DNA of 63,631 nucleotides, filler included, from Stramenopiles sp. TOSAG23-2 (GCA_900128395.1; 20 parts of 20 records of this genome joined end to end with filler, not necessarily neighbours in it), one strand, 5' to 3'; shown: positions 4,094-46,320, numbered from the whole stretch's first letter. Made by a program: numbers and translations. The notes: a model not told the origin generated them from the letters alone.

Positions 4094-4741
4094 TCAAATA
4101 AATACATGGAACAACGACATGAAGCTACTTAACCATCCATCTTTTTCATCAGTAGGAGCACCCTTTACACGCAAACCACTACAACCACGTTGCACATAAC
4201 TAGCATCATCTGAACAACGTGAACCCACTTGTTTGCACCACAGCGTTCCTTTCATATCTGCGGCAGCAGATGCCCATTCTTTGTTATTGATATCTGAAAT
4301 AAATGAACCAAAGGACCTAAAACCGCCAACACCTAGGTTAAAAGTCATATCCACCATAACATTTTGTACACCACAGCATAAACTATCAAAACTTGATACC
4401 ACGCTGCGTGCTCCGGAGATAGAGGAACCAATTGTTTTAGAGAAAATAACATTCACTTGTGATTGTGTTAAACAACTTTTTCCAGAATAAATGTTGTCAA
4501 AATTTGCTCCTACGGATTCAATCATTTCTTTTGCACCACCCTGATCCAGGTTATACCCAATGCCAATTGTTTTATGCCCCGTTGTATCAACGTAGACACA
4601 TAATTTATCCCCTTCATGCTTTGCAACTAAATTCCTTAAAGATGCTGTACAGGACTGCGCATTGGAAAATGTTAAAACACAAGCAGAAATAATTGCTACA
4701 ATAAAAAATATTTTTTGTAATGTCATTTGTAAATATCTCAT
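4094..4741 (-). CDS. Secreted phage-type (T4-like, GH24) lysozyme
   Basis: HEGDKLCVYVDTTGHKTIGIGYNL carries the E-x8-D-x5-T triad of T4 lysozyme. MTFNLGVGG...KEWASAAADMKGTLWCKQVGSR matches the T4L C-lobe. Signal peptide is IFFIVAIISACVLTFSNA. The start is ATG 4741 or 4726. Confidence 0.9.
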   Translation of the reverse strand: MRYLQMTLQKIFFIVAIISACVLTFSNAQSCTASLRNLVAKHEGDKLCVYVDTTGHKTIGIGYNLDQGGAKEMIESVGANFDNIYSGKSCLTQSQVNVIFSKTIGSSISGARSVVSSFDSLCCGVQNVMVDMTFNLGVGGFRSFGSFISDINNKEWASAAADMKGTLWCKQVGSRCSDDASYVQRGCSGLRVKGAPTDEKDGWLSSFMSLFHVFI

Positions 4742-6867
4742 CTGTTCTTTTTGGTGTGTTGTAATTATTACTTCTTTTGATATCGTATGTATCAATATAA
4801 TTTAATTATTGTTATGAGGATAATTTATATATATGTTAATTAATGTTAATATAGGTTTTTGGGTTCTTCTGTGATTTTTTTATCACTTTTTTTACTACCA
4901 ATACCAAAAAATTACAGGTACCTGGTAAAATATATAAAAAGTAAAAAAAAAAAAAAAGAAGTTGTGTGCTTGTTCTTCTTTTTATTCTATATTATTATTA
5001 TACTACTACTACTACTACTTGTACATTCTAGGCAATTTTAAATGCTACTACCAGGTAATATCTTCTTCGTATTCTAATATTGTAATTCTAATAGCTAATA
5101 GCTTCTTATAGTGGCTAACCTTAAAAATCAGTATACTATTGCTGTAGGAAGCTTTCTATACACACTTTTTTTTAATTTTTTTGGCCTACTATACTGTACT
5201 GTACTCTGTCCTAGTCTGTCTATACTATAGCTCTACTTGTTCATACGCAAGGAGAAAAAAGCCAAATCCCCCATACTTTTATAGTTGCTGTGTTCATGCT
5301 AATTAAATAACACTATACAGTATGGGAAAATGTGACGAATTAAAAAAATTTTGCAACAAAAGCGAAGTTGTAAATCTATCAATAATAATAATACTATATC
5401 GATATATACCCATCACAAAAGAAAAGATTTTTGTTATATACATATATACATTCGTTCATTACCTTTACTGAATAGAAAAAGAATTCATTAATGAAAGACA
5501 AACAGCAATCGTTGTTTATTATATGTAAAAAATTATCATATTATAAAGATTGAAAAGATCATTCATAAATTTTATTTATATATATATATATATAATAATA
5601 AGACTTTTATATTATACATCATATATTATATACATCAATACGTACAACTAGACCCGAACATTTGACGAGCGTTAGATGCGCGTGATAATGACCTACCGTT
5701 ACATGCCTATTAACGAAATACACTTGCAGCCTTTTTCTCATGTAAATTGATCATATATTGGTGGATATACTTAAAATGGATGGTATATAACGTAAGGGTT
5801 GGTACAAAGGGGAATTAAAATCATCTATGATGGTAGTGAAATCTTTTTTTAAACCAGTTTTTCATGCTGATTCAGAAAATCAAGGTTACGATAATATCAC
5901 GAATCTTTATCATAGTTTTTAGGGACATTTTTTATGAGATTCGAAATCACTATTTTATTGGAATTAGACATTATATTACAGTAATTACTAGTAAGATGGA
6001 CCAGTAGTACAAATATGAATGCTACGGAAAGTAAGTGGGTATACCAGATCTTTAACAAGTTCGAATTCATGGTGTTAACATTTTTTCTAGATCACAATTG
6101 CATGATAATTTCAAAAATGTAAGATATTTGGCATAATTTTAAGAATTGGTGAAGCTACAAGAGTATTTTAACTGGAGAAAGGATTTTAAAATGAAACGGA
6201 CTTATAGCCTTTTTATCATGCTTATTGATTCAATGGAGATAAAAATAGTAGAAAATTTTAAGTACATAATATTTTTGCTTTACTTCTCTTCTAATTTTTT
6301 ATTTTTTATTCCTTCTACTATTGCCATCATTTGTATCATCTCTTCCCCTTTTAATGGCGGTAATGGTAAAAAAATTGAAAAAAAAAACAAAAATTGAAAA
6401 AAAAAAAAACTGTCTGACAAACCGTGTAAATATTTTTTCAAAACAGAGGTGTAATAATATAAAACTATTTGAGAGACCGAATTACACCGTTTATAAAGGT
6501 TTAGGGTGATTTTTTTCTCAAATCGCTTCGGCCANNNNNNNNNNNNNNNNNNNNNNNNNNNNNNNNNNNNNNNNNNNNTTAATTAATTAANNNNNNNNNN
6601 NNNNNNNNNNNNNNNNNNNNNNNNNNNNNNNNNNTACATATTTTTGTTAGAGTACTTAAAACTATAGTATGGAGATTTTTTGTTATTTTCTATAGTAATG
6701 ATAATTGTCCCTATGAAGTTTTTTTAATATATGGAAATAGCATTACGAAATTAACATGGATTGGCGCCTTTCAACATTTTACTTGTGAAAATTGTGTTTT
6801 TCTGCCATGTTTTCCCTTTTTCCTTTCCTATCATATTTATACTTAATATGATACTTTTCATATACTG

Positions 6868-7846: not shown

Positions 7847-9835
7847 ATGCAAGAAAGTGAGTCAATAACTGGTACCTTACAAGATAAACTAATGTTTAAC
7901 TTAATAGGTAACCAAGTCATTTACAATATATCATGGGAAGATCCACGCATTGACCGTGCGTTGTTAAAATTGGGACCAGATGACGTAATGATGATGTTAA
8001 CATCTGCTGGCTGCAATGTATTGGATTATCTTCTAGAAGGTCCAAAAAAAATTGTTGCGGTTGATTTGAACCCACGACAAAATGCATTATTATCCATTAA
8101 ACTTGCGGCTATCAAAGAGTTAGAATATGAGGATTTCTTTACTTTATTTGCTAAAGGTGATGTAGAATTATTTAATCGAGTGTACCAATCTAAATTGAGA
8201 CAACATTTGAACGAAGATTCAAGGCAGTTCTTTGATGCTAGTGGTTCTCATTTTTTCACACAAATCATGTGGAGAGGTATGTCAGGACGTGCAGCACAAA
8301 ACTTAGTACGCATTTCTTCCCTTCTAGGATTAGGCGGTTTTATCGAAGCGTTAAAAGATTGTAGAAACATGGCAGAACAACGTGAATTATGGGGACAATA
8401 TAAAGGTCGATTGCATACATATGCAAGTGTCGTGAACTCCACCAGACGTGTATGGGCACCATTTATCGGTGTCCCAGATTCCCAATTATCATTATACGAA
8501 GGCAATATCGTTCAAAAATTAATGGATCATATCTTTGAAAATACATTTATCGCTGGTGATAATTATTTTTACTATGGTTATTTTTATGGCCAATTTACGA
8601 AAGAATGTAGTCCAAGATATTTGAAAGAGGAATATTTCAGCACATTGCAAAAATACGTTGACCGGGTAGAGGTACGCACCGGTACATTGCAACAAGTAGC
8701 AGAAACATACCCAGACAATACGTTCACACGTTATGTATTGTTAGATCATCAAGATTGGTTAAGCACCGAAGCAATTTTAGAGGAATGGGAAGTTTTTGCG
8801 AAAAAATGTAAACGTGGTGAAGCACATGTTTTATGGCGTTCCTTTGCAAATTATCAACATATTGGACCATTGAAATTTTTAGATTTCGTCGACAATGTCC
8901 AAGAAGTGGAAGCTGCATATCCAGATCGCGTTGCAATGTACAATTCATGCCATTATGCACGCATTCCAGATTTAAATGAAGGTTTCAATATTGTGAAACG
9001 TACACCATTTAAACCAAAAGCAAGTATTTGTGACGATGCAAATGTGTTATTTGCTAATTTTGTACACCCTATTTCCGGTTCCAGCCATCAAGAAAAGTTA
9101 GAATCGTTTTATCGTGGCCAAGCATCATCCTATGACGTCTTCCGTCATCGATTTTTACATGGTCGCAAATTGATGTTGGAAAACATGCCAACGCCACCAG
9201 GTGGTGTATGGGTTGATTTAGGTGGTGGCACAGCAGCGAATTTGGAGGATTTGAAAGAAAGCATGTTTTTATTTAAACAAGTAGTTGTACTTGATTTATG
9301 CCGACCATTGATTGATGTTGCACGTAAACGTGTGGAGGAAAATAATTGGAACAACGTATCCCTCGTCGTTGGTGATGCATGCGATACATCGGAAATGTCC
9401 AATTTAACAGGACAAGTTGATGTCGTAACGTTTTCGTACTCATTGACCATGATACCAGACTGGCGCGCAGCACTTGATAATGCAATGAGATTATTGAAAC
9501 CAGGTGGTTATATATGCATTGCTGATTTTACAGTAACAAATGAACATTCATGGTTTACACGTAAATTCTGGAAAACCGTCTTTGCAAATGACAATGTCCA
9601 TCCAAATGAAGAACATATACCAACATTGAAATCAATGTTCAAAGAAGTGAATTGTAAAGTTTCTGCTGGAGGATTCCCATACGTTCCAATGTGCATTAAA
9701 TCGCCATATTACTTCTTCGTTGGGCAAAAAGAAGATGATGGATCTGTAAGAATGTCTTCTGATAGTATTAGTAGCAATGGTAGTTCAAACGGAAGAAATG
9801 GATACTGCAATAAGTGCGGAGCGAGAAAGGTTTGA
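7847..9835 (+). CDS. BTA1: Betaine lipid (DGTS) synthase, BtaA (DUF3419)-BtaB methyltransferase fusion
   Basis: The N-half has BtaA motifs YNISWEDPRID, LTSAGCNVL, VDLNPRQNALL and LLDHQDW. The C-half has BtaB motifs LESFYRGQASSYDVFRHRFLHGR, WVDLGGGT and FSYSLTMIPDW. Confidence 0.9.
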   Translation: MQESESITGTLQDKLMFNLIGNQVIYNISWEDPRIDRALLKLGPDDVMMMLTSAGCNVLDYLLEGPKKIVAVDLNPRQNALLSIKLAAIKELEYEDFFTLFAKGDVELFNRVYQSKLRQHLNEDSRQFFDASGSHFFTQIMWRGMSGRAAQNLVRISSLLGLGGFIEALKDCRNMAEQRELWGQYKGRLHTYASVVNSTRRVWAPFIGVPDSQLSLYEGNIVQKLMDHIFENTFIAGDNYFYYGYFYGQFTKECSPRYLKEEYFSTLQKYVDRVEVRTGTLQQVAETYPDNTFTRYVLLDHQDWLSTEAILEEWEVFAKKCKRGEAHVLWRSFANYQHIGPLKFLDFVDNVQEVEAAYPDRVAMYNSCHYARIPDLNEGFNIVKRTPFKPKASICDDANVLFANFVHPISGSSHQEKLESFYRGQASSYDVFRHRFLHGRKLMLENMPTPPGGVWVDLGGGTAANLEDLKESMFLFKQVVVLDLCRPLIDVARKRVEENNWNNVSLVVGDACDTSEMSNLTGQVDVVTFSYSLTMIPDWRAALDNAMRLLKPGGYICIADFTVTNEHSWFTRKFWKTVFANDNVHPNEEHIPTLKSMFKEVNCKVSAGGFPYVPMCIKSPYYFFVGQKEDDGSVRMSSDSISSNGSSNGRNGYCNKCGARKV

Positions 9836-13147: not shown

Positions 13148-13741
13148 NNNNNNNNNNNNNNNNNNNNNNNNNNNNNNNNNNNNNNNNNNNNTTAATTAAT
13201 TAANNNNNNNNNNNNNNNNNNNNNNNNNNNNNNNNNNNNNNNNNNNNGTAATTTAAGTATGTCTATTGCAATAATATATACACAGCATTAAATTATAACA
13301 CCTGCTGTGTCAATTCTAAATCCAAGACATAACCAAAAAAACGTGTAAGAATCCGGATCATAATAAAACTTAAATAATAAAAATGGAAGCTGGATTAGCA
13401 CAATAGGAAGGCTGGAAGGCTGGAAGGCCCAGCAGCAGAATGTAGGTATAATAAGAAGGCCACTGCGATGGGTTGCATGGATGGAGGAAGGCCGACGAAG
13501 TATTAATATAATATGTATAATAATAATAAAAAAAAGTAAAAAAAAAAAAAGAAGAGAAAAGTGCAAAAGAAGATGATGGGAGGAGGAAGAAGAACTTATT
13601 CCTAAGCTAACTGGCTAAATATCTTCTCTGTAAATATATACAATACATGTATATACATCGCATGATATGTAAATCGATAAGCAAAAGACATACAAATCTA
13701 CAGTTACATTGATTCTATTACTGAAAAGAGAAGGAAAAGAT

Positions 13742-16452
13742 ATGAGTGATAACAACAACAAAATTACTGACTTTGTTATCAACGAGGAAGTATTTCTTAC
13801 TATTGGCATACTAGGAACAACGGAAGAATTGAAATATGCAATACTCGACAAAGATGGAGAGCGTACTTTATGTCTTAAACGTAATGGTACGTTAAAAGCT
13901 CAGATAGACGCAAACTATTCAAATGCTATTAGTTACAGCTGGCAAAAAGATGATGGTGATACCAAACAAATAAATCTAGGTACAAATGATTTACCTTTTG
14001 GTTCGTCACTAGCAACTGGTTATAATACCAGACTCAAGACTCAATGGAAAATCAGGTATGATCTCCCCAATAACAAGTGGGGATTTGCAAAGGTTAAAAT
14101 TTTCCAATTGAGCGAAAGTGATTTTTTATTTGATACCATATTAATTCTGAAAAAAGGTTGGGATGGGGACATTCAGCCTATAGCTTTTTTGGATGCAAAT
14201 ATCCCACTCTACCCGCCGCCCCATTTGCCAAATGGACCAAATTTATCAAATAATACCCAAACTTTTCATACAATAATTGCATCCAAAGCATCTTTCATTA
14301 AAACAGTAACAGATCAATTAATAATTTTATCAGATTCCAAATTAAAAACAATTATCAGCGAGTGTCCTGATAACGTATTAAGTAATATAGTTAAGTTACC
14401 ACTTTACATATACAAATGGAATCAAACAGAAGATTTAGATGCAGGTCCATTAGCAGAAGATTTATGGAAGATTGGCAATTCAATTGGCATTCCATTAGTA
14501 CAATTTGAAGATGGAGAAACAGTTACAAAAGAAAATATTAATACTCGTTTGGATAAAAATGGCAATGTCGAAGAGGGAAAACGTTTAGTTGTTAATACGA
14601 ATGCGCTGAATACGTTAAACTTACGATGTATTCAAGAATTACAAAAAAATCAAAAGAAACTTACAAAAAAACAAAATGAATATGTTTCTTATTTGTATAA
14701 GAAAATACAACAAATGGATAGTGATATGAAATTAATGGATAACAAAGTTCAAAACATAGGAAACCAAGTTAAAAACCATGCAGATGAGATTCAAAGTTTA
14801 AAGCAACAGAAGAAAGGATCTAATTTAACAATAAAAAAAACGATAGAAACGAGTATGGGGAAACAGACAACTGTATATTCAGGTGATGCGGACAAAGTAA
14901 TTGCTGCAAGACAACAAAGTGCCGAACGTAATGATAATAACAACAATAATAATTTAAAACAAGAAATTAACATAACTTTGGCAAATGATGTAGATATCAA
15001 CATGCAAGAAAAACAAAGAATTTCGGCACATGTTGAAAAAGAATATGATGTTGAAAAACAGGTTGAAGAAATGGATTTAAATAAATTATCAACCATAAGT
15101 ACTACAATTTTGAATGATCCTGGACATTGGGATTTTTTCATTGGTCATTCGAGGCGCAGTGGGCAGGCAACAACCCTTGCTGCCACTCTATACCATGAAT
15201 TGACTACGAAAGGTTATACTGTATGGTTAGATGTTAAAATGCCCAATCCGGCAACGGATGCAATGAAAGAAGGAGCTCAGAATTGTAAATTATTTCTTGC
15301 AATTATAACTGGCCCTTGTATGAATGAAGACAATCCTAATGACCCACCTGAAAAAAATGCATATTTCAATCGACGGTTTTGTCTTGAAGAATTGAAATGG
15401 GCGAAAGAATTTGGTATACCTATTCAACCTGTCGTTCGAAGAAATGATCAACAGAAAATAGGAGAATTAATGACCTTGGCACCAGATGAATTTAAATTTC
15501 TTGGTGATATAGCATTTATGAAAGTAGATCGTGATGACCCAGAAGTTTTAAATGTGAATGTTGCTAAAATTATTAAGCAATTATCGGGTGGTCCTGCTAC
15601 TAGTAAAATGCGAGAAATAATAAATAGAAGGAAAACAAAAATTGTTCCGCTTGTACAAACAAATATAAAAAACAATGCAGCGTTGGTACCAAAAGAATTG
15701 GAAGAAGAAATATTACGCGCAAAACCACAAAATAATAATAATAATAATAATAATAATCCTAGTAATGCTGAAGTAAAGTATACTGAAGCAATATTCTGTA
15801 AATTATTTCAAACGCATATCATGAATCTAGAAAATCTTAACAATATGATAGAAGCATTAAATAATATGATGCAAATAGGCGATGTTCAAAAAATTGCTAC
15901 AAAGATAGGATGCAAGAATATCAACATCAATTGTCTACCGGAACGAAGACAATTATTGAATACGTTAAGAAAGATATGCGAAGAAGGTAGACTAGCAAAC
16001 GATACTCTCACACCTGATCAGCGAAAAAAACTAGATGAATATTATAACAAATATAACAACGACAACAAAATTAACAATATTCATATTCACGGTCCAGCTG
16101 GTTCAGGTAAAACATATTTAGCATTAGATTTTATTACAAAAGAAATTAAACACAATTCAAAGACGAAAATATTGTTTGTTTGTACAAAAAATGGATTTGC
16201 AAAATTTTTAGCTAGATGGATTTTAATTCGTATTATAAATACAAAAGAAGAAGATAAAAGTGATGATGAGACAAAAGAAGATGATGCAACGAAATATAAT
16301 CCTCAATATATTTTAAATTGTATACATTTTTGTACTGAAAATACAGGATATAAAGCACATCAAGGTATATTAAAACAAGATTCCGACGATCAGCCGGTAT
16401 ATTTACATTTTGATCAAATTCAAGATACAGACCGTGTAGATGAATATAATTT
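13742..16452 (+). CDS. Unknown N-terminal domain + coiled coil + TIR domain + SF1 (Schlafen-like) helicase, 3'-truncated
   Basis: TIR at about 15120-15590 (WDFFIGHSRR...VWLDVKM...AMKEGAQNC...YFNRRFCLEELKWA). Walker A GPAGSGKT starts at 16091. From about 15641 onward it is near-identical to the 36734 gene. Confidence 0.85.
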
Positions 16453-36240: not shown

Positions 36241-36733
36241 NNNNNNNNNNNNNNNNNNNNNNNNNNNNNNNNNNNNNNNNNNNNTTAATTAATTAANNNN
36301 NNNNNNNNNNNNNNNNNNNNNNNNNNNNNNNNNNNNNNNNTCCAGTTCCAACTCCTTATTCCATATACCCATGCTGTGTCCATTAACCACGTCTTGTTCA
36401 TCCTACTACAATGTTTTAAAAATATTAATACGTTCCTTCGATGTTCCCTCCTTAAATGTTTCCTTGTTTAACAACATTTCCATCGTTTCACCATCATTCA
36501 GGGCAGGGGTCCTTGCCTTTCACGGCACTTGGCTATTATATAATAATAATAAATATATTATATTAATAATTATACTACTAGTACTATTAATATACCAGAG
36601 TAATTCTTTCAACAACAAACAACAAAGTAACACTTACATCCAACGATCTCTAATAATTACATTAACTATTGTAACAAAAACAACTACCCCCTTTGCTCAT
36701 CATAACTTATTTATTATTGTCTCATAAATAACT

Positions 36734-39532
36734 ATGGCATCTTTGACAATGAATACTAGTGTTATTTTGAATGACCCTGGACACTGGGATTACTTCGTAT
36801 CGCATGCACAAAAAGATGGTGCTGTATTAGCTGAAGGGATATGGTCACATATGATATATGTAGAGAAAAAAACCTGTTGGTTAGATGTAAAAATGGATGA
36901 ACGTGATGAGGCAGCGATGAAAGAAGGGGTACAAAATTCCAAATTCTTTTTAACAATCGTTAGCGAAACGTATTTTGAAAGACCTTTTTGTATTAAAGAA
37001 TTAGAATGGGCCATGGAATATAAAAAATCGATGGTAGTAGTAATAGATGTGAAATTAAAAAATGATATTGGACGATTATTGAACAAATGCCCAGAGCATT
37101 TACGTAATATTGGTAATATCAATTTTATTGATTTAAATCGAGGCGATCGCGAATACTGGGAAGTCGGTATGAAGAAAATCATAAAAGCGAAACCACGAAT
37201 ATTAAAAAAGCAAATTGTCCCACTTGTACAAACAAATATAAAAAACAATGCAGCGTCAGTACCAAAAAAAGTGGAAGAAGAAATATTACGCGCAAAACCA
37301 CAAAATAATAATAATGACAATCCTAGTAATACTGAAGTAAAGTATACTGGAGCAATATTCTGTAACTTATTTCAAACGTATATCAAGATGAGTTCAGAAA
37401 ATCTTAATAATATGATAGAAAATTTTAGTATGATGCAAATTGGTGATCTTCAGAAAATTGCCACAAAGATAGGATGCAAGAATATCAACATCAATTGTCT
37501 ACCGGAACAAACGCAATTATTGAATACATTGAGAGAGATATGCGAAGAAGGTAGACTCGCACAGGATACGCTTACGCAAGATCAGCGAAGAAAGCTAGTT
37601 AAATATCACGAAGATAAAAAAAACAACACTAATAAAACCACCAATAATATTCATATTCACGGTCCAGCTGGATCTGGTAAAACATATTTGGCATTAGATT
37701 TTATTATTAAAGAAATTAAACAAAATTCAAAGACAAAAATCTTGTTTGTATGCACAAAAAATGGCTTTGCAAAATTTCTAGCAAGATGGATTTTAATTCG
37801 TATTATAAATACAAAAGAAGAAGATAAAAGTGATGAAGAAGATAGTGAAGAAGAAGAAGATAGTGAAGAAGATAGTGAAGAAGAAGAAGATAGTGAAGAA
37901 GATAGTGAAGAAGAAGATAGTGAAGAAGAAGAAGATAGTGAAGATGATGTAGCAAAATATGACCCACAATTGATTTTAAATTGTATACATTTTTGTACTG
38001 AAAATATAGGATATAAACCACACCAATGTATATTAAAACAAGATGCGGACGATCAGCCAGTATATTTACATTTTGAGAAGATTCAAAATGCAAACCGTGT
38101 TGATGAATATAATCTGATAGTCGTAGATGAGGCACATCATATTATACATGAAAAGAATAGAGAATGGAAACAAATACATCGTCAACATTTTTATACAGCA
38201 AAAAGACGGATTATACTTACCGATCCATCCCAAGATCCGTCAACTATAAAAGACATAGAAAGTAGAATAAAAGAAGCAGCTGCTGAAGAAGAAGAAGAAG
38301 ATGGTGATGATGATCAAAGAATGGGAAATATTTACAACATAGAATTAAATGATGTAGTACGATCAACGCAACGAATTACTTTAGCATCGCATTTATTTAA
38401 ACATATGGAACAAACACCAACATGCAAAACCAAACAATTTGGTGAAGCGGTGAAAATGTTTATGGTGGATGTTCAAAACGATCAGATTCTAAATGCATAT
38501 GTTCGTACAACAATAGAGGCAATAAAGTATGCACAAAATAGAAAGTCGCATGACGAAGGGTTTTGGGATTTAAATCATCGTATTTCTATTATCATTCCTG
38601 GTGATAGCGCAAAGTTTGACCAACACGAGTTCAAAAATCTTTTACAAAACGAATTGAATACAAAAAAACGTCTAAAATTTGAATTATTCAGTGCTGAAGA
38701 AATGTTTGGAAAATTTCCACAGTTGGAATATAAATCCGTACAAATGGTAGTAGATACCATTGCAAATCAAGATGGGTTAGAATATGATATTGCTATCGTG
38801 GTTGGTTTTGGTGTAAAAATTAGTGAATTGCGTACGCAACATAATAAAAATAAAACAACATTGTATCGTGCTATGACACGTGCAAAAGAGTTTTTAGTAA
38901 TTGTAAATGAACCTGTTCAAAATGGTTATTTTCATAGTACTATTACTGATACAATATTTAAAGATGATGAAAATTTGAAGAAGGAGGATGAGGGGCGTGA
39001 ACTTGTTGTGCCAATAAGAGATGGTAATGATTACAAAAGGTCGGAAGATGATGGGAATAATAATAATAATAATAATAATAATCACACCAGGAAGAAGATG
39101 CTGAAGAAGAACCACGAGGAAAATGATAAGCAAAACAGTAGTAACGACAAAAAAAAGACAAATAATAATAATAATAATGTTAATATTGTCACAGAAAAAA
39201 AACAAATAAAAATATTAACTGCAGTATTCGATACATCAGATATTTCTGAATCAACAAAAGAATATTTGGGTGTAACAAAGTACCAGGTGAAAACTTCGCA
39301 AAAGAAAGAAAGTGTAAGAAAGGAGAAGTTGATAAACAATAGTCCTGCATATATTAAATGGAAAAAAGAATTTGATGGGAAGACGAAAGTGGATTTGTCT
39401 GGAAAGAATCTTACCAATGTGGATGCATTAGCTATTGGTGAATTGTTAAAAACAAATAAGGCATTAATGCACTTGAACCTAGAAAATAATAATATTACTG
39501 ATGTACAAAGTATTGGTGAAGGATTAAAAACA
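36734..39532 (+). CDS. TIR - SF1 (Schlafen/UvrD-like) helicase - LRR protein (3'-truncated)
   Basis: TIR at aa ~17-150 with FCIKELEWA (E89). Helicase motifs: GPAGSGKT (aa 310), LIVVDEAHH (D465), VRSTQRI, DGLEYD and LYRAMTRAK (aa 710). RNI-type LRRs VDLSGKNLTNVDALAIGELL and LMHLNLENNNITDVQSIGEGL. Confidence 0.88.
37831..37947 (+). repeat. Coding tandem repeat (GAA)n-GAT-AGT encoding an acidic EEDS tract
   Basis: About eight gaagaagatagt-type units. Absent from the paralogue at about 16260. Confidence 0.9.
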
Positions 39533-42919: not shown

Positions 42920-45513
42920 TGATTTTTCTTTTCTTTTATTGTCAAGTAAATCATTTCGGACATGACTTTGCCATCATGTTCGTTCGTATACTTGAATTCA
43001 GCTTTGCCTGTTTTTGCAATAGAGTGCCATATTTCGTTTGCTTGAGCTATGGTCTTTTGCAGCAACGATGTTGGTGTACGATTGGCGTCTGTAGTTTTAA
43101 TAAATGGTGAATACAATTCCATACGGCCTCGGAGCGTGTTCTCAACAAGATCACAAGTTCTACGGTATTCCTGACCTTTGGTATATATGGTCACAGTTTG
43201 CTTTTTCAAATGCTTCTTTACGGCATCGTTCCGAAAAGAAAGATTACCGTTTTTAGACATAGGTGCAGCTTCTAGTAATCTATCAATTGGCGTATCCACT
43301 AAAACAGTATCCCCAGCATCAATATTTTGCATGTCTATGCCAATGAAGAACTGGTTTCCAAAGCGATAATTCGGCCTATGCAAGAATGGAAACTGGTGAC
43401 ATTGCAGCGCATAGGATTTCGATCCATCAAAACCAGATAAGATTTGTTCTTTGCTGATATACCAACGATTTTCAGTTGTGTTATATTCAACACGTGAATT
43501 TGTTAAAGCATATGCATTGAAAATAATTGGCAGGCATTCAAGAAGGTATGGATATTTCTCTAGTTGGTCTATAGTTTCTAATTCAAAATCCAAGTCTCCA
43601 GCTTGTCTATCTATCTGGTCATTTGTTGATTTTTTTCTCTGATAGGTTTCAAAATTTTTAAATTCGAGTTTTTTGACATGGTATCCATTTCTTGTTTTAA
43701 TAAAATATAAACCTGCAGCGAGCATCGGTAAATGTATCTCTAATTTTTTGCGCCTTTCATAATCTTTTTCTGAAATCACGAAGGCGTTTACAATAGCACA
43801 AGGTCTGCACGAAAACCAATACAATATCAGTACAGGCAATATCAATTGCATAAAGTAAGATTGTACATTACCAGTCAATTGAAATAAAACTGGGAACAAA
43901 ATCTTTTCAATAACAGGTCTCGCAGTAGCTCCTGATAATTTTGGGGCCTTGGTAAGACGGATATCTGTTGTTTCAGGATCACTAGTCTTTTTTTGATTAT
44001 CTACTTTACCGTACATATGATCGGTCGCATAAGCAGCAAGTAAATATTTCAGCCAAATTTCTGCGTCTTCATGATTTAATAAGAAGACAATGAAATCTTT
44101 GAAACTTCTACAAGAAAAGTTCATCGATTTTCGCATCGAAAAAAGTGGTCTTAACGAATCCAAGACATAATGCTTGTTGCTGAATTTTTTTTGTTTCGAA
44201 AATCCATTATTTAGTTGCTGCAAAAAAATTGACTCTTGACGAATTTTTTGATTCTTGTTGTTAATTTGATGATCAAATAGGACATCTGTTCGTTTTCTTA
44301 TTTTATTTTCGAGCCAATCGACAGTCTTTTTTGTAAAGGTTTCGCGGATAATGGTTTCGTTTTTGTAAACGCAACGGCGCTGCTCTTGCGGTTCATGTAC
44401 GCGATATAATTTTTTCAATGTGCTGACAATCGTTGTCAAATATCCAATAATTCCATTCGTATGCTTTATGTCGTATACATACGCAACCATTTGTAAGGCA
44501 CGTCGTAAATTTTCGCTTCTATTGTATAAAAAGCTAGTTGAATGGTTCCTTGGGATACCGAACGTACAACCTTTGTTTACGTGCTGTTGTATGTCATTTT
44601 TGAATCTGGTGATTTCAGCTTCGCTATATTTTGGCCTATGTTTCATAAATTCAGTATGAACGGCGTCTAAAATGTCGGATTCCAGTGTCTGTTTCTTGAT
44701 TCGCGTTTGAAAGTGTTCTTGCAAGCTTTTGAAATACGTGATACTACCAATGTCAAATTTTGGTTGCGAATATTTTTTGAGTTTGATTCGCTTTAATATT
44801 TCCAGAAAGTCTTCCAATGTCCATACATTGATCACAGACGAACGCTTTATTTCTTCAACGTAGCGACGATCTTTCAGATGCTTTTTGATACAACTTAAAA
44901 CAATCGACCGTATAGTCTCTTCTGCTTTAATACGAGTGCTACGGATGATATCTTTCGTCACAGCATCTGCAAAGCAATCAGAGATGTAGAGTTGGTTTTT
45001 GTTTCCATCAAAAAAAACTACTCCTTTTAATTTTCCCTTGTGCTCATAGTAAACTTTAAGCGCATTACTCTCGTACACGTCTTCTAGGCTTGGTTTACTA
45101 AAATTACGAAAATTGGTCAACAGTAAGATCGATGGCTTGTGATCAAATTCCGTAGTCATTTTTTTGGCACCAAAGATACAATATTTATTATTATTATTGT
45201 TATTATTATTGCCTTTTTTGATGTAGTAGTAGTAATAATAATACTGAGGACGGTCTTTTTTTTTGGTATTATTTTCTGTGCTAAGGTTATTATTATTATC
45301 AGAAGAAGAAACGATGTCGTTTGGTATAACTTTTTCGTACACTTCTGTGATAGGCTTTTTGATCACAGTATCTATGCGATATGCGTAGTCTTTTGTTTTA
45401 CGGCTTTTCTTTTTTGGAGGCTGCAGCGATAAGTCTTCAGCGGGTTTTCCAAATACTGCTGTGAACGCATGAGAGAACGCGTTTCCTATGAGTCGTATTA
45501 GTGTAACAGGCAT
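42920..45513 (-). CDS. Large protein of unknown function, possibly a divergent tyrosine recombinase (3'-truncated)
   Basis: Open frame of more than 860 codons. Weak YR-like motifs FSCRPCAI, NTLR and H-x9-Y near the end. Confidence 0.55.
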
Positions 45514-46320
45514 GATTTATCTGTCCTTTGATTCAATTTTTTTTAGTTAATATTTTTTAACAATTTCTGGGATTTAACCCTATTTCTAACTCGTACGATG
45601 TTGATTTTTTTTATTTATTTCGCTTTCAACATCGATGGTCACGATGCAAATAGCATTGAATCAAATAAATTTGTTTAAAAAACATAATTTAAATTCTTCA
45701 ATTATTGTTAAAAACCTTGATGACGCGGTGTCGTTGTATTAGTAGATACAACATATTTGCATATCTAAATCAATTTTGTGGAATTTTAAGGATGTTAAGA
45801 ATACATCACGATCGCTCGAATGTCGTTGTATCTACAGATACAACCGTGTTTCCGAAAACCAAATACCTGCTATTGCATCGTAAATTTGGTTTTTATTTGG
45901 TTTTTTTTCCAAACCAATTGGTTTACATGGACACAGCATTGGGACCCTTCAAGATGAGGTTCGCGAGAGTTTCGTTATTAGCACATTAACATATGTGCAT
46001 ATACTACTAGAGCTAGTAAATTATTAATTTATTATATTAAAGGCAATGGGATTTAATTTATAATATTTTTAATCCATCGAATATTTGTGATATATCAAAN
46101 NNNNNNNNNNNNNNNNNNNNNNNNNNNNNNNNNNNNNNNNNNNTTAATTAATTAANNNNNNNNNNNNNNNNNNNNNNNNNNNNNNNNNNNNNNNNNNNNC
46201 CTGTTGCCTGTTGTAGCCTGTATATACAAACATATAGGGAAATATAGCTAGTAGTATACAAAAAACAAAATAGATAATATACTGGTTTAAAAAAATTAAC
46301 ATGTAATGTGTCGCAAACAT

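Follow-up and report, generated by a model that had tools for sequence, protein, structure and literature searches.

Effectors of the TIR, CHAT protease and kinase types are classic immune and cell-death enzymes. In plant TIR-NB-ARC-LRR receptors and SARM1-type NADases the TIR domain carries a conserved Glu, and the plant receptors also possess a central NTPase and C-terminal LRRs. Fungal NLRs are described as combinatorial assemblies of effector, NTPase and repeat domains (Dyrka et al. 2014, PMC4986451), in which highly similar NTPase domains occur with different N-terminal domains and the repeats are internally conserved but variable at exposed positions (PMC4986451). A second group of related systems is defined by the self-cleaving ICA (Peptidase S74) chaperone. 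MYRF is reported to use a dyad of S587 and K592, five residues apart, and to cleave only as a trimer (PMC8326128, PMC3742443), while S74 domains are described as common in polinton-like-virus fibres of protists (PMC12220804) and are mentioned in algal viruses (PMC12906663). The gene described here, from Stramenopiles sp. TOSAG23-2 (GCA_900128395.1), joins parts of both groups.

The window, i.e. the whole stretch of 63,631 nucleotides analysed, consists of 20 separate contigs of ~3.2 kb each, joined by N-linkers. The assembly (9,146 contigs, 32.8 Mb) is that of an AT-rich eukaryote with long uninterrupted frames; it contains 55-base overlaps and duplicated edges, so that 100% identity of flanks and helicase parts may partly reflect collapsed repeats. 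Runs containing the stretch are mostly marine metagenomes, and 9-11% of its words were present in six RNA runs. The gene under study lies on contig C5579 (window 13248-16452), which truncates its frame at 16452, just before Walker B, and a paralogue lies on contig C5586 (window 36341-39532). Their features are as follows.

13742-16452, plus strand: TIR-helicase gene, an intronless open frame of 903 amino acids from the ATG at 13742
13787-14158, plus strand: N-terminal all-beta domain (residues ~16-139), a generic Ig-like beta-sandwich assigned to no family
14261-14329, plus strand: short beta-stalk directly before the cleavage site, from the head alignment and the trimer-model interface
14330-14647, plus strand: Peptidase S74 / ICA self-cleaving chaperone domain (Pfam PF13884)
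14330-14332 and 14345-14347, plus strand: Ser197 and Lys202, the putative ICA dyad
14597-14812, plus strand: coiled coil running on from the ICA domain (model helix 286-357)
14813-15112, plus strand: low-complexity spacer with an in-frame poly-Asn tract at 14936-14953
15113-15592, plus strand: TIR domain, subtype B, with an insertion at 15320-15358 and the putative catalytic Glu550 at 15389-15391
15611-15641, plus strand: TIR/shared-linker recombination junction, from the identity step and bridging contigs
15641-16060, plus strand: linker common to all TIR-helicase members
16061-16452, plus strand: N-terminal part of an SF1-type helicase, Walker A at 16091-16114
36734-39532, plus strand: paralogue with a subtype A TIR, the linker from 37214, a full SF1 helicase and the start of the LRRs; no ICA head

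On balance, we take the 13742 gene to be a recombinant that belongs to a modular family of marine-protist proteins, cytosolic and resembling immune receptors. The same qualified confidence applies to the family layout, in which a beta-sandwich head, ICA trimeriser and coiled coil precede a TIR, CHAT protease or kinase, followed by an SF1 helicase or sometimes NACHT and by LRR, WD40 or ankyrin repeats. No membrane helix was found in the 13742 protein, whose highest 19-residue hydropathy is 1.21 (1.12-1.51 in four long relatives).

A first-pass annotation of the window had drawn attention to the two TIR-helicase genes, and the motifs it quoted are all in place: NDPGHWD at 15113, WLDVKM at 15224 and AMKEG at 15260 in the TIR, then IVPLVQT at 15641 (37214 in the paralogue), Walker A at 16091-16114 and RVDEYN at 16433-16450. 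The catalytic Glu is retained, as it had stated, being the second Glu of FCLEELKWA (15389-15391), and the Glu motif is found in 20/20 aligned TIRs. The insertion MNEDNPNDPPEKN (15320-15358), which had been taken as peculiar to this copy, instead marks a TIR subtype and occurs in 7/20 aligned TIRs. The TIR-B domain matches Pfam TIR_2 with 29.4 bits when isolated (cut-off 28) and 25.3 in the whole protein; it thus carries the profile match and catalytic Glu of TIR NADases, and NADase activity is putative.

The two TIRs of the window are only distantly alike, as claimed, with 40% amino-acid identity over 152 aligned codons, a saturated pS of 0.72 and a pN of 0.39. After the junction the genes are highly similar, again as claimed, with 83% amino-acid identity, dS 0.38 and dN 0.09 over 266 codons. 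The change is abrupt rather than gradual: third-codon-position identity is 59/146 before and 217/272 after the best split at 15611, whose strength was equalled in 0/200 shuffles, and the step adjoins an indel-rich stretch ending at 15641. TIR effectors are often under weaker constraint, and a fast TIR and a slow helicase with a single common history could on that ground differ in protein identity. However, synonymous divergence steps at the same point, pN of the TIR within a subtype (0.03-0.07) is similar to that of the helicase, and the TIR and helicase trees conflict. Simple rate variation retains next to no probability, and we consider it excluded because synonymous sites go from saturated to dS 0.38 at the junction.

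More direct evidence comes from L115 and L116, which are intact frames of 1,466 and 1,513 codons in another public assembly, each with the order head-ICA-coil-TIR-helicase-LRR. Across the 13742 gene, L115 and L116, the 126-residue N-terminal part of the helicase has 100% protein identity and a pS of 0-0.04, and it is preceded by TIR-B, TIR-C and TIR-A, respectively; these TIRs are 36-51% identical, with a pS of 0.66-0.73. The linker of the 13742 gene has 72-87% amino-acid identity to five relatives (pS 0.18-0.22). A swap bounded on both sides is visible in contigs C2642 and C2568. Their flanks show 99% identity in the first 521 bases and 100% in the final 464, and enclose TIRs of types A and C, which are 52% identical. 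Both contigs extend the same upstream contig via a 55-base overlap and therefore form a bubble in the assembly graph; they are either alleles or paralogues of very recent origin, and the assembler may have contributed to the perfect match of the flanks. Kinase-TIR-LRR genes exchange these TIR types as well: two of them have flanks that are 85% and 81% alike and yet carry TIR-A and TIR-B. Swapping is wider than that of TIRs on the helicase, since a CHAT protease or a kinase occupies the same slot.

Phylogenies agree with this pattern. The TIR tree covers 19 of the 27 contigs with matches to the paralogue's TIR plus one outside protein, one identical copy and seven weak distant matches having been omitted, and it contains three main groups: A (with the paralogue), B (with the 13742 gene, marked by the insertion) and C. 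Each mixes helicase-linked TIRs with kinase-TIR-LRR, TIR-TPR, TIR-kinase, TIR-ankyrin or TIR-TIR-NACHT architectures. In AU tests, for which two long branches were dropped, L116 was added and groups were defined by architecture after the first tree had been seen, a single clade of the seven helicase-linked TIRs was rejected (p-AU 9e-71), as was a clade of the two window TIRs (p-AU 1e-8). The helicases of the five includable TIR-linked rows form one supported group, so the check for incongruence between TIR and helicase trees that had been proposed comes out positive: the helicase-linked TIRs are not a clade and their helicases group together.

Synonymous saturation, the AU tests, the two-sided swap and junction-spanning contigs all support the initial suggestion that TIR modules were recombined onto a common helicase. 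These comparisons show that modules have been exchanged between copies, and the TIR swap is very probably real. Alternatively, old paralogues could have kept their own TIRs while gene conversion homogenised linker and helicase, with nothing swapped in. This is rather improbable, even though the helicase N-terminal parts are identical in members whose C-terminal helicase halves are only 80-89% alike, as patchy conversion would give, and although the TIR-B domains of the 13742 gene and C1263 share one junction at a pS of 0.25. Against it, the upstream flank of C2642 and C2568 is also identical, so that the TIR is the replaced patch; moreover, the nearest relatives of each TIR type are helicase-less genes, and the 88% DNA identity to C1421 and C1587 ends at the junction. 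Conversion is itself still recombination and probably acts alongside swapping.

The junction was also checked against contigs of four runs, X1, X2 and two metagenome runs, and is bridged in 2/4; a lack of read support across about 15600-15660 had been named as a refutation. X1 record 6 (15209-15683, 475 bases) crosses 15641 with 0 differences and X2 record 14 (15048-15719, 672 bases) with 8. X2 is the more independent bridge because the window could itself derive from the best-matching run. Pieces from the two metagenome runs lie on either side of 15641, and none of the listed records spans it, a gap that carries no weight against the junction. For the 5' join between head and TIR-B (15100-15140), no single listed record of the four runs is a bridge. 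In X1 depth is 6 over the head piece (14232-15142) and 36 over the TIR-B piece; another record, with a depth of 6.6, departs at 15138 and returns at 15632 via other sequence; in X2 the TIR is preceded by a different upstream sequence, as in C2642 and C2568. These alternative paths imply that several head-TIR combinations exist. The head of this contig may therefore belong to another TIR, but its head-TIR combination is probably real rather than the assembler's choice.

It is very unlikely that the mosaic as a whole is an artefact of assembly or single-cell amplification that joined paralogues via shared repeats. The fragmented assembly with its 55-base overlaps, duplicated edges and one frameshifted copy would make such an error conceivable, as would the head-to-TIR join unbridged by any one record. 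However, the TIR-linker junction lies inside single records of two runs, every junction is in frame and at a domain boundary, intact full-length TIR-A and TIR-C frames exist in another assembly, and the ICA-TIR join recurs in a metagenome protein. The intact L115 and L116 frames and the bridging contigs thus bear out the earlier view that the TIR-helicase fusion is not an assembly artefact.

Several observations on individual copies were made in passing. The paralogue (36734-39532) is 97.5% identical to L002 (C5495) over 2,795 bases, with the first ~590 codons identical and divergence thereafter; the two may be allelic, stem from a recent duplication or reflect an assembly edge present twice. 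On C1263, L045 (2932-8789) is an ICA-TIR-B-helicase-LRR copy spread over three frames with internal duplications, of which 630 bases are 100% identical to window 15823-16452; it is either a pseudogene or a misassembly. The ends of L052, L017 and L018 (C4959, C7011 and C4468) overlap by 55 bases and together give an ICA-coil-kinase-helicase-LRR copy with an internal stop between coil and kinase. Upstream of the 13742 gene, 13248-13362 is the end of a short dispersed repeat with 36 genome matches. These often form inverted pairs with a spacing of 70-190 bases, as MITE terminal repeats do, and the region has very high depth in all four runs.

The exchange probably followed a two-step route. A rare in-frame fusion at the domain boundary would first connect the linker with a TIR type new to it, and homologous exchange among members would then move TIR cassettes between loci, with the conserved first TIR motif and the linker serving as homology arms. 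The nearest helicase-less relatives of TIR-B are 82-88% identical to the 13742 gene, the match stopping at or before the junction. Since C1263 has the same TIR-B-linker join (pS 0.25), this fusion probably occurred once and was then moved by homologous exchange. Between the paralogue and L116 divergence is equal in TIR (pS 0.29) and helicase (pS 0.30), and because these values match, TIR-A is likely to be the ancestral partner and B and C later ones. From sequence comparison, then, TIR-A looks ancestral on this helicase and the 13742 gene looks like a recipient of TIR-B.

As far as the sequences can tell, heads move between genes too. C1421 shares the leader and start codon of the 13742 gene (84% over 107 bases) and lacks the head, passing from the first poly-Asn tract directly to the spacer before TIR-B, and C1862 carries a head joined, with the frame kept, to a copy of the beginning of a different gene (93% over 114 bases). 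Crossovers that move heads may plausibly occur at in-frame AAT tracts, of which the TIR-linker junction has none.

The suggestion that two members among 20 contigs point to an expanded family was correct as to the existence of a family and overstated as to its size, the helicase N-terminal part being found on 15 of the 9,146 contigs (17 matches). The head has 16 matches in the genome and the paralogue's TIR 33, on 27 contigs; these counts are lower bounds and include alleles or duplicates. The paralogue is without the 457-residue head of the 13742 gene, so the head is optional for TIR-helicase-LRR proteins. Such heads are followed by TIR, CHAT or kinase, then by helicase or NACHT-like domains, then by LRR or WD40; C649, for instance, is an ICA-headed relative with a NACHT-like domain and WD40. 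The CHAT domains are sub-threshold Pfam matches in which His-Gly and Ala-Cys motifs are visible. The cell thus seems to diversify its sensors by combining parts in different ways.

A long gene of the opposite strand often adjoins a family member in head-to-head orientation (L115 2-2572, L116 2-2704 and L054 1-2259, minus strand), and ubiquitin-like stretches were seen by eye in that of L054. A second, separate S74 group (L055, L056, L057, L059 and L065) consists of genes for long fibre-like proteins in which the domain lies close to the C-terminus.

Beyond this genome, a profile search of 1.84 billion representatives gave 27 matches with shallow alignments. P0004, a metagenome protein fragment, joins ICA, coil and the start of a TIR; P0009, from a distant species, has ICA, another middle domain and a helicase; and P0011 is an ICA-NACHT protein. 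The layout is therefore older than the species and not a product of single-cell amplification. In P0009 the effector slot (residues ~450-620) holds an unnamed domain with an 'FSPGS' motif, which also follows TIR-B in C1587 (L090). No relative of head or helicase was detected among viral contigs (0/26 and 0/587 candidate stretches), PADLOC returned a weak Walker A match only, and neither the ICA profile nor the TIR had a real match among PDB sequences.

The first-pass annotation overlooked the 457-residue head, which contains a Peptidase S74 domain above the Pfam cut-off: residues 197-245 match PF13884 with 33.2 bits (cut-off 22, E 6e-8; 35.2 bits in a second scan) and the region also matches, at E 2e-6, a PHROG of phage tail fibres. 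In an alignment of heads (11 of the 16 matches being given), Ser197 and Lys202 are conserved without exception (11/11), and a Ser-Lys dyad five residues apart is present in 15/15 heads of a second alignment. Coiled-coil residues 311-350 are modelled with pLDDT 85-93 and make heptad contacts in a trimer model. Three copies of residues 169-340 scored 0.91 in that model, against 0.07 for the best control, on a scale calibrated on dimers whose mark was reached by 21/30 solved pairs and 0/23 single chains; partner pLDDT was 88 and runs agreed in at least 97% of contacts. This pass may reflect likeness to, or memory of, solved ICA trimers. Model residues 2-41, which cover the stalk, lie within the interface, and by analogy with MYRF the stalk would form a triple beta-helix (PMC8326128). 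Taken with the conserved dyad, the model makes it likely that the head self-cleaves and forms a trimer, and the N-terminal domain is predicted to be freed by this cleavage.

That domain is less well defined. AlphaFold2 gave a mean pLDDT of 65 (core 70-84) in the best of five models, with structural matches only to generic Ig-like beta-sandwiches (best Z 4.7); a single-sequence model of residues 1-363 reached pLDDT 43, at which a fold search is meaningless. It has no Pfam match in the 13742 protein, and none of 11 head-only queries exceeded the curated cut-off. Comparison of the head types by hhalign revealed no detectable homology among them (probability <1%). The ESM Atlas returned for the head only S74 clusters, under 0.9, and none for the head of P0009; a word-index search with residues 1-330 found 0 matches among 2,354 candidates of 496-1,581 amino acids.

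A MYRF-like pathway, in which the N-terminal trimer, once set free, would be a nuclear factor and cleavage would be under the control of the TIR-helicase-LRR part, is conceivable and rather unlikely. The order of beta-rich domain, stalk, ICA and coiled coil is that of MYRF, a basic patch separates head and ICA in several relatives, and there is no membrane helix, so that control would have to come from the cytosolic tail. However, no NDT80, p53-like or other transcription-factor fold is found among the listed structure rows for this model of moderate confidence, the head types lack detectable homology, the 13742 copy has no clear basic patch, and headless members exist. The likeness to MYRF and Dictyostelium MrfA extends, as described for these proteins, to an ICA domain inside the chain whose Ser and Lys are spaced by five residues, a following coiled coil (PMC8326128, PMC3742443) and an upstream beta-rich domain that would be released by cleavage. 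In contrast to them, the 13742 protein has no membrane anchor, and the C-terminal part is an effector-helicase-LRR chain. The S74 chaperones of phage tailspikes and polinton-like viruses belong to the same domain family and share the dyad (PMC12220804), but in fibres as described there S74 is C-terminal and discarded, whereas in the full-length relatives of the 13742 protein it is followed by more than 1,100 residues. Viral fibres are a plausible source of the ICA domain.

The working model that we favour is one of a tethered effector. ICA and coiled coil would assemble three chains and cut before Ser197, freeing the head, which could be a second signal or mere folding cargo, and leaving three TIRs tethered on the coil. 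LRR and helicase would sense a ligand, probably foreign nucleic acid or protein, whose binding would rearrange the TIRs into an active NADase and switch on NAD+ cleavage. A role in defence is marginally favoured and is our best guess because of the effector-NTPase-repeat layout, the immune-type effectors and the variable exposed LRR positions. This layout is seen in the full-length L115, L116 and L117, C5579 itself ending inside the helicase. Among 38 distinct LRR units from the fetched loci, the five exposed positions have a pN of 0.47 and a pS of 0.24, against a pN of 0.05 and a pS of 0.06 in the framework, which is near-uniform even at synonymous sites; units were picked by framework match, which lowers the framework pN by construction. 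Positions 4, 6 and 8 admit 11-12 residue types each.

Compared with plant TIR-NB-ARC-LRR and SARM1-type proteins, the family shares the conserved TIR Glu, a central NTPase and, in full-length relatives, LRRs; it differs from the plant receptors in having no NB-ARC, and the trimeric coil may supply oligomerisation in advance. Schlafen SF1 helicases (SLFN5, SLFN11) also place an effector before the helicase. Similarity of the helicase to SLFN5 in the PDB is weak (E 0.08), T4 Dda scores better (E 9e-4), and Pfam SLFN-g3 in P0009 reaches 21.4 bits, below the cut-off of 24. The Schlafen (AlbA_2) nuclease has no Pfam match in the 13742 protein or the full-length relatives scanned, and LRRs follow the helicase here, unlike in Schlafens.

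The parallel with fungal NLRs that had been drawn holds for the shuffling, in that a near-identical NTPase occurs with different effectors, and fails for the motor, which is not of the STAND type. The paralogue scored 16.9 bits for NB-ARC (cut-off 23.5) and E 0.18 for NACHT, and the SF1 motif set of both helicase halves is invariant in 8 aligned members; because its motor is an SF1 helicase, the family is not an NLR. Both systems, on the published description, combine domains, pair near-identical NTPases with varied N-termini and have repeats with a conserved framework (PMC4986451). In fungal NLRs the motor is NACHT or NB-ARC, whereas here it is an SF1 helicase in most members; the repeats here are LRRs, of which that study reports none in fungal NLRs (PMC4986451); and a self-cleaving ICA head precedes the effector, unlike in fungal NLRs.

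Elsewhere in the window, 42922-45516 (minus strand) is an 865-residue frame without an obvious eukaryotic look, possibly a mobile element. The 4094-4795 frame (minus strand) encodes a secreted protein that, by eye, is presumably a phage-type lysozyme, and 7847-9835 (plus strand) resembles a betaine-lipid synthase in which BtaA and a methyltransferase are fused.

That effectors are shuffled onto a common NTPase is already described for fungal NLRs (PMC4986451). For such shuffling on an SF1 helicase, behind a soluble self-cleaving trimeriser, no precedent was found in the open-access literature, supplements (which could hold domain tables) aside, nor was any S74-TIR-helicase or TIR-helicase-LRR protein of protists. 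More speculatively, and with less than even likelihood, these genes could represent a class of protist innate-immune receptors outside the STAND lineage, with a virus-derived trimeriser, sensing by helicase and hypervariable LRRs, interchangeable TIR, caspase-like and kinase cassettes, and a cleavage-released N-terminal trimer as a second, possibly nuclear signal, the cassettes being alternative alleles at one locus in a wild population. Little is known of how free-living heterotrophic protists sense viruses or other invaders. After MYRF, this is the second case of a eukaryote using the phage ICA domain, here in a soluble protein. The locus also shows NLR-like shuffling caught in the act, with breakpoints located to a few codons and a non-STAND motor. 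It suggests that the effector-switch-sensor design and its diversification by recombination arose again from other parts.
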